Notes under the pieces: model-generated
What the model was told of the DNA's origin: nothing
What the model saw: only the letters and a program-made list of their open reading frames with translations
Databases searched by the model: none
Shown: in pieces, positions 61,942 to 62,957 of the stretch
How positions within the stretch are numbered: the first letter of the stretch is position 1
Layout of the letters: each line of letters opens with the position of its first letter
NCBI GenBank assembly: GCA_963831005.1
Contig: CAWHOW010000019.1
Location: 250,000-313,999, forward strand
Length of the DNA: 64,000 nucleotides
Direction of reading: 5' to 3'
From: an uncultured Bacteroidota bacterium
Lineage (GTDB): Bacteria; Bacteroidota; Bacteroidia; Bacteroidales; CG2-30-32-10
Program-made: the position numbers and the translations under genes

Positions 61942-62851
61942 ATGAAACGAAATTCCCTGACCATCATCATCGGCGCAGTGCTGGTTCTGATTTTCGCGCT
62001 GCTGCTGTTTGTCTTTCAAGTCCGCCAGTCGGAGACCGCCGTCGTCGCGACCTTTGGCAAGCCGACCAGCCAGAATTATGACCAACCCGGCGCGTATTTC
62101 AAATGGCCGTGGCCGATCCAGAAAGTTTATAAATACGACCAGCGCGTCCAGAATTTCGAGGACAAATTCAGCCAGACACTCACTGCGGACAGCAGCATGC
62201 GGCTGACGAGCGTTTTGTCGGCTGGCAGATATCGGACGCGAGGCAGTTCCTGCAGGTTTTTCCCGGCGACGCGTCGGTGTCGCTCCCAAACGCGCAAAGC
62301 AAGCTCGAAGGCATGGCTGCGCACGGCCAAAAGCGCCGCCATCGGCAGGCATCTGCTGTCCGATTTTGTGAACGCGAATCCGAAGGCCCTGAAATTTGAT
62401 GTAATCGAAAATGAAATCGAACAGTCCGTGCAAAACGAATTGCAGACGAACAATTACGGCATCGAGCTCGAATTTCTCGGCTTCAAAAAAATCGGCCTGC
62501 CCGAAAGCGTGACGCAGACAGTTTTTGACCGCATGAAATCAGAGCGGCAGAAGCTTATCAGCCGCGCGGAAAACCAAGGAAAAGCGGGGGCGCAGAAAAT
62601 CCAGTCCGCCGCCGATGCCGACGCCGCCCGGACCATCGCCAACGCCCAGGCCATCGCGACCCGCCTTCGCGGCGAGGCCGAGGCCGAGGCCGCCATAACC
62701 CTGCCGGTGTTCCAGCGAAATCCAGACTTGGCAGTTTTCCTTTGGCGCATTGACGCGATGAAGCAATCGCTGGACTCGCGCGCGACTCGTTTTTCGACGG
62801 GCGCATTCCGCCATTTGATTTGTTCAGCCACATGCCGACGAATGCGCCAAA
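61942..62851 (+). CDS. hflC: HflC-like SPFH/band-7 protein in high-GC DNA, frameshifted
   Basis: It has an N-terminal TM helix, then SETAVVATFGKP..AYFKWPWPIQKVYKYDQRVQ. Downstream blocks are LKFDVIENEIEQSVQNELQ..YGIELEFLGFKKIGLPESVTQTVFDRMKSERQ and the C-terminal DSRDSFFDGRIPPFDLF, the last in a different frame. Confidence 0.6.
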
Positions 62852-62957
62852 AAAAAAAAAAAAAAAAAAAAAAAAAAAAAAAAAAAAAAAAAAAAAAAAA
62901 AAAAAAAAAAAAAAAAAAAAAAAAAAAAAAAAAAAAAAAAAAAAAAAAAAAAAAAAA
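62849..62957. repeat. 109-nt uninterrupted poly(A)/poly(T) homopolymer
   Basis: It is counted directly: from a at 62849 through 62957, then cca. It produces poly-Phe and poly-Lys ORFs (62454..62975, 62824..63009). Confidence 0.95.

Follow-up and report, generated by a model that had tools for sequence, protein, structure and literature searches.

The SPFH operon and the A tract

The window, i.e. the whole 64,000-nt stretch of DNA that was analysed, ends in a GC-rich tail of 3.0 kb (60976-64000) that is joined to 61 kb of DNA with a GC content of 37%. The tail carries an operon of three SPFH genes and, within the second of them, a very long A tract. The Pfam family Band_7 matches all three proteins of the operon, and an intact orthologue of the HflC-like gene is found in a related contig (L001, positions 5602-6516). 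The features of the region are as follows, each with the evidence for it in brackets.

60926-60975, plus strand: ~2.3 units at the start of a tandem repeat of 21/42 nt, located 3' of tex (comparison with ENA contig L038)
60970-60976, no strand: chimeric breakpoint between Bacteroidales DNA of 37% GC and Verrucomicrobiota DNA of 59% GC (GC profile, L038, junction comparison)
60976-61936, plus strand: 3' half of an HflK-like SPFH gene, with indels at ~61118, ~61178 and ~61644 (blastn, alignment, Pfam)
61942-62969, plus strand: HflC-like SPFH/Band 7 gene, with 1-nt indels at ~62216, ~62310 and ~62789 and the A tract (homology, Pfam)
62849-62957, plus strand: A109 tract with 36 in-frame AAA (Lys) codons (sequence, absence from relatives, alignment)
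62958-62969, plus strand: native end of the HflC-like gene, re-read after the tract as CCA (a repeat of 62847-62849), GCA, AAC and TGA (codon comparison with the relative L029)
62974-64000, plus strand: third SPFH gene with a His-rich N-terminus (MSDEHEHHHHGHE...), which runs off the window (homology, Pfam)

The tract is exactly what the first-pass annotation had reported, namely an uninterrupted run of 109 A residues at positions 62849-62957 of the plus strand, and these coordinates were read directly off the 64-kb window. A scan of all 64 kb gave two runs of A9 as the next in length. If the bases are modelled as independent, ~10^-51 such A runs are expected with the A frequency of the window and ~10^-67 with that of the tail. 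The tract is not explained by chance.

The GC-rich context that had been noted for the tract is indeed present, as its flanks have a GC content of 57-66% in 100-nt windows. The ATG of the next gene had also been placed correctly at 62974, which is four bases past the TGA stop at 62967-62969. However, the tract does not lie exactly between the two genes, as had been claimed. It is in frame and inside the HflC-like ORF, three codons ahead of the stop. The frame upstream of it reads ...FDLFSHMPTNAP and leads into CCA (Pro, 62847-62849), which is followed by 36 AAA (Lys) codons (62850-62957). On the 3' side of the tract, the sequence continues with CCA GCA AAC and the stop codon, and the resumed CCA directly adjoins the last A. 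The insertion that bears the tract is A108 plus the repeated CCA (62958-62960), or 111 nt in total, and a multiple alignment also scores it as a 111-nt insertion that is found in the window only.

The end of the HflC-like gene in related loci

A protein-guided scan of genomes, in which each species was represented by one genome, yielded 18 loci, 17 of which are on Verrucomicrobiota/Limisphaerales-type MAG contigs. The gene order (HflK-like, HflC-like, third SPFH gene) is the same in these 17. An exact anchor of 26 nt, taken from the beginning of the third gene, was used to scan metagenome contigs and gave 19 further loci, mostly on JGI-named (Ga...) contigs. At the protein level, the best 120 HflC matches were taken from a collection of 5.8 billion proteins.

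None of the 36 Verrucomicrobiota loci (17 from genomes and 19 from metagenomes) has an A run at the site of the tract, where the maximum is AAA. In these loci, the HflC-like gene ends two residues past the motif PTNAP, occasionally at least four, and between GCGCC and the next ATG there are either 12-20 nt or an unrelated insert of 230-580 nt (L029, L019, L033 and L036). The best 120 HflC proteins agree with this picture. They are 181-307 residues long and have the C-terminus ...PTNAPxx or a near variant of it; most of them stop two residues after PTNAP, a few stop four residues after it, and none contains a run of more than two lysines.

The closest relative at the DNA level is L029, with a blastn nucleotide identity of 92.6% over 60976-62848, and the best protein match is 82% identical over the C-terminal 177 residues. 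With these as the nearest sequences, the same strain without the tract was not found. At the codon level, L029 reads CCG ACG AAT GCG CCG GCG AAA TGA, whereas the window reads CCG ACG AAT GCG CCA [A108 CCA] GCA AAC TGA. Deletion of the 111 nt (A108 and CCA) results in CCG ACG AAT GCG CCA GCA AAC TGA, which encodes P-T-N-A-P-A-N-stop and is codon-aligned with L029.

A literature search returned no usable statement on the maximum length of a homopolymer in prokaryotes, and the related loci were used as an empirical control instead. No homopolymer of nine or more nucleotides is present in 38 such loci comprising 274,679 nt.

The relatives display several other features of this locus. The three-gene SPFH operon is unusual and is kept across Limisphaerales-type MAGs. 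The HflK-like partner in L001 (633 residues) has a long multi-pass membrane N-terminal half, and the His-rich N-terminus of the third SPFH protein, MSDEHEHHHHGHE..., is conserved (62974-63010 in the window; 6522-7604 in L001). The closest relatives have a hotspot for insertions between hflC and the gene that follows. In L036, it contains a BrnT toxin and CopG/BrnA antitoxin pair (2192-2723, Pfam). At 8045-8272 of L029 and at the equivalent sites of L019 and L033, there is a 75-residue remnant ORF that resembles the N-terminus of the antitoxin, and the inserts of these three loci contain inverted GC-rich palindromes (GCGCAGGCGTCCCGCCTGCGC and its complement).

Origin of the 3-kb tail

The GC content of the window is 32-43% per kb from position 1 to ~60.9 kb (~37% for this body) and ~59% from ~60.95 kb to the end. 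The body is Bacteroidales DNA. For the Tex fragment, one match is 100% identical across 94% of the fragment, relatives follow at 94-95%, and the named matches lower in the list are Bacteroidales or Bacteroidota. In the protein-guided scan of genomes, the GC-rich tail was identified as Verrucomicrobiota DNA of a Limisphaerales-like type. Hence, the whole segment 60976-64000 is from a different phylum than the rest of the window, and this is a more important finding than the tract itself. The SPFH genes had been taken as part of the same genome as their surroundings, and this view has to be abandoned.

The transition is very sharp. The blastn homology to each of the Verrucomicrobiota relatives begins exactly at 60976, although the relatives hold sequence upstream of this point. 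Position 60976 corresponds to approximately residue 310 of the 633-residue HflK-like orthologue, so that the tail starts in the middle of a gene. On the other side of the breakpoint, a 9,374-nt ENA contig (L038; ERZ25039486 contig_85205) is 99.2% identical to window positions 55990-60955. Beyond the equivalent of 60955, L038 continues with a 460-nt tandem array of 21/42-nt periodicity and then with AT-rich DNA. The array (4931-5388 of L038) contains ~11 units of 42 nt, and the window leaves it at the breakpoint after ~2.3 units of 21 nt. A 4-nt microhomology, GTGC, is common to both parental sequences at the switch. The two sides of the join are therefore from different organisms, and the true continuation of the Bacteroidales side is seen in L038. 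The consensus of the array that follows tex is TGCGAAGTACACTTCGAGCAT, and each of its units is partly palindromic (CGAAGT..ACTTCG).

We also searched the junction (60880-60995) for adapters by local alignment with shuffle controls, using ONT, PacBio, Illumina, 454 and Ion adapter sequences. Nothing significant that would represent an adapter or barcode remnant was found in this interval. The junction bears a by-eye likeness to an ONT adapter or SMRTbell, but this candidate was rejected, as the segment is the native Bacteroidales tandem repeat. The join at 60976 is a chimeric read, a mis-join at the repeat or a concatenation of two contigs, and does not occur natively. As no adapter was found at the junction, two separate contigs could have been concatenated here.

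Error load of the tail

The tail contains 12 frame-breaking indels of 1-2 nt in 3.0 kb (~0.4%) when compared with L029, L037 and L019, and its quality is thus like that of raw reads. They affect all three genes, and the third SPFH gene has at least six single-base indels between 63120 and 63770. Most of these indels are outside homopolymers. In all relatives, the ORFs of the SPFH locus are intact. The 61-kb body of the window has long intact ORFs of up to 1,152 residues and few breaks, which concern Tex, a split aspartokinase and perhaps an IS transposase. The density of indel errors in the tail is ~50-100 times that of the body, a ratio that gives the order of magnitude.

The substitutions in the tail have a very different character. 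Third codon positions account for 61% of them, there are more synonymous than nonsynonymous changes, and the substitutions, when projected on the reading frames of the relatives, create no new stop codon in ~960 codons. Judging by this pattern, the genes of the tail were under purifying selection in their source organism. Since the substitutions are of this kind and have produced no new stops, the indels are technical errors and not a result of gene decay, and the error rate of the tail is raised beyond what evolution explains. Decay of a horizontally transferred fragment into pseudogenes was considered and rejected because of the codon positions and the synonymous bias of the substitutions, because the tail has no new stops and because L038 shows the native continuation.

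Other features of the window

The tex gene (58760-60897) is broken by at least two indels (~59133 and ~59164-59220), and L038 has errors in the same patch, which suggests that this patch is a site of systematic base-calling error. An aspartokinase gene on the minus strand (877-2249) is present as two separate ORFs that overlap by 49 nt, one for the AA_kinase domain (1251-2249) and one for the ACT domain (877-1299). This is probably another sequencing frameshift, located in the main body. An IS transposase (42244-43177) is likewise split, and its HTH_Tnp_4 and DDE_Tnp_4 ORFs overlap at an A9 run (42760-42768), where either the length of the homopolymer is wrong or the frameshift is programmed. 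At the Rfam gathering threshold, two ordinary features of the Bacteroidales body were identified on the minus strand, namely a SAM riboswitch (68.8 bits; 2398-2507) and a tRNA (38677-38750).

Origin of the A tract

The most likely explanation, to which we assign a probability of about 0.9, is that the A109 tract is a technical artefact in the chimeric and essentially unpolished end of a long-read assembly. An artefact of reading or assembly that needs to be flagged had been proposed at the outset, and the data uphold this proposal: the 111-nt insertion is absent from the 36 loci and the 120 proteins, and it is located in an indel-rich chimeric tail. A long-read platform, perhaps nanopore, is suggested by the indel-dominated errors and by the Flye-style name of ENA contig_85205 (L038).

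DNA of a Limisphaerales-like member of the Verrucomicrobiota is joined, in the middle of its hflK-like gene, to the Bacteroidales chromosome inside the tandem repeat, and the sequence of events behind the A run could be the following. The resulting tail would rest on one chimeric long read or on very few such reads. The A run would then be a homopolymer over-call of the flat-signal or stall type, as in nanopore reads, and one may speculate that base calling subsequently re-synchronised on the same CCA. At such a low coverage, consensus polishing would presumably have been unable to remove the A run. The tract would have no biological function, and the native gene would end in ...P-T-N-A-P-A-N-stop, with a spacing of 4 nt to the ATG of the third SPFH gene. 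The artefact predicts a compact junction, GCG CCA GCA AAC TGA ACCC ATG, and k-mers across GCGCCAGCAAACTGAACCCATGAGC, whereas a real tract predicts k-mers across GCGCCAAAAAAAA.

Two points count against an over-call. Nanopore base callers shorten homopolymers more often than they lengthen them. Furthermore, with at most AAA at the native site, the event resembles an insertion more than the lengthening of an existing run. Simple extension of the native A run was rejected, as the relatives have no more than AAA at this site. The homopolymer over-extension that the first-pass annotation had put forward is plausible for long reads, although the native site has no more than AAA to extend: in ONT reads, the length called for a homopolymer of 2-5 nt can be one or two orders of magnitude too high (PMC8486125). 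It is also known that the nanopore signal is unchanging across a homopolymer (tailfindr preprint, 10.1101/588343).

The first alternative, which we regard as improbable, is that the run is a placeholder, i.e. an N gap of a scaffold recoded as A (for example, by 2-bit encoding) or a patched join of concatenated contigs. The A run is perfectly pure, as a placeholder would be, and the window is without any N. In addition, one unnatural join is already present at 60976, and the flanks of the tract share 3 nt (CCA), an overlap of the kind that contig ends may have. However, flanks that abut or overlap by 3 nt imply a true gap that is zero or negative, and a scaffolder would have had no reason to introduce ~109 N. 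To our knowledge, the fixed gap sizes in common use (10 or 100, for instance) include neither 109 nor 108, which is a further argument against a placeholder. Finally, the indel noise of the tail points to error at the level of the read rather than to scaffolding.

Less probable still is that a polyadenylated transcript fragment, tailed either naturally in the bacterium or in vitro, was joined to another molecule. Poly(A) tails that are added enzymatically are typically ~100 nt long, which fits the observed length, and the tail of the window is already chimeric. However, the sequence after the tract resumes at the exact nucleotide where it had stopped, with only CCA being read again, and remains colinear for 1 kb through the operon. 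Two independent molecules would need to have been broken at the same base. The upstream part also includes an unprocessed and truncated hflK-like gene. The earlier suggestion of a poly(A)-tailed cDNA or RNA read is not supported, given the resumption at the exact genomic position, and neither is an adapter origin, which had also been raised, as the resumed CCA directly follows the last A and leaves no room for an adapter between them. Nor is there support for an element, retro-transcribed or polyadenylated, whose 3' end would be marked by the tract, the other origin that had been offered. There is no element body before the tract, and the sequence downstream of it belongs to the same operon and is colinear.

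An equally slim chance is given to the tract being a genuine feature of an uncultured member of the Limisphaerales. It would be either a giant, hypermutable run of A or an insertion of poly(A) that duplicated a 3-bp target (CCA) and was created, for example, in an event mediated by a reverse transcriptase, and the HflC protein would acquire a poly-lysine tail. The 111-nt insertion is in frame, the direct CCA repeat resembles a target-site duplication, and the same gene junction is an insertion hotspot in close relatives. However, the tract is found in no relative, the 274,679 nt of related DNA mentioned above are devoid of homopolymers of nine or more nucleotides, and the surrounding 3 kb are demonstrably error-rich. 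The odds of coincidence are 1 in 3 for an in-frame length and 1 in 64 for a 3-nt repeat. Iterated AAA codons cause ribosome sliding and lower the protein output, and 36 of them would derail translation (PMC4363877). A real tract is biologically implausible because of this impairment of translation and because the related loci are without such homopolymers. The specific version of this scenario, in which a genuine 108-nt poly(A) insertion with duplication of CCA in the hflC-like gene is the footprint of a reverse-transcriptase- or terminal-transferase-type activity, is equally improbable.

A poly(A) hub of a De Bruijn graph with a run of about k was rejected, as the indel-rich tail is atypical of a short-read assembly, and neither 108 nor 109 is known as a common k value.

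Implications

The importance of the tract lies in quality control and not in biology. The segment 60976-64000 should be flagged and masked, as the other ~95% of the window belongs to a different organism. Conclusions drawn from the tail about SPFH genes of Bacteroidales, a poly-lysine HflC, horizontal transfer, pseudogenes or a retro-element would be wrong. The combination of a jump in GC content, a beginning inside a gene and numerous frameshifts together with substitutions that bear the signature of purifying selection can be used as a recipe for spotting such tails.

Comparison with known systems

The poly(A) sequences of eukaryotic LINEs, SINEs and processed pseudogenes are accompanied by target-site duplications, and the A tract is likewise flanked by a short direct repeat (CCA). 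In contrast to these insertions, there is no body of an element upstream of the A run, a repeat of 3 nt can arise by chance, and the host is a bacterium. We know of no retrotransposition mechanism in bacteria that creates a poly(A) tail of this kind.

Bacterial contingency loci also have homopolymers in coding regions near the end of a gene. Contingency tracts are roughly 6-20 nt long, differ from strain to strain and turn genes on or off, and are about an order of magnitude shorter than A109. Here, the run is 109 nt long, is missing in all relatives and belongs to a lineage without a run of nine or more nucleotides in related loci. The orthologous sites of the 36 relatives carry no homopolymer of variable length.

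The over-calls in single nanopore reads described by Delahaye and Nicolas (2021, PMC8486125) resemble the tract more closely. They too are pure runs at a position where the template has 1-3 copies of the base. The overestimate amounts to one to two orders of magnitude, occurs in individual reads and is removed by the consensus when coverage is adequate; the present run is found amid indel-dominated errors. It would be at the extreme end of these over-calls, with the platform suggested by the error pattern and the contig name, and the re-reading of CCA is outside the discussion in that paper.

The tail as a whole is similar to the chimeric contig ends of long-read metagenome assemblies. No adapter or barcode remnant was found at the present junction, and a simple concatenation of two contigs could have produced it. 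Otherwise the two are alike: the phylum and the GC content change abruptly, the break falls within a tandem repeat of the Bacteroidales DNA and within a gene of the Verrucomicrobiota DNA, the quality of the consensus drops past the join, and a near-identical contig, L038, gives the true continuation.
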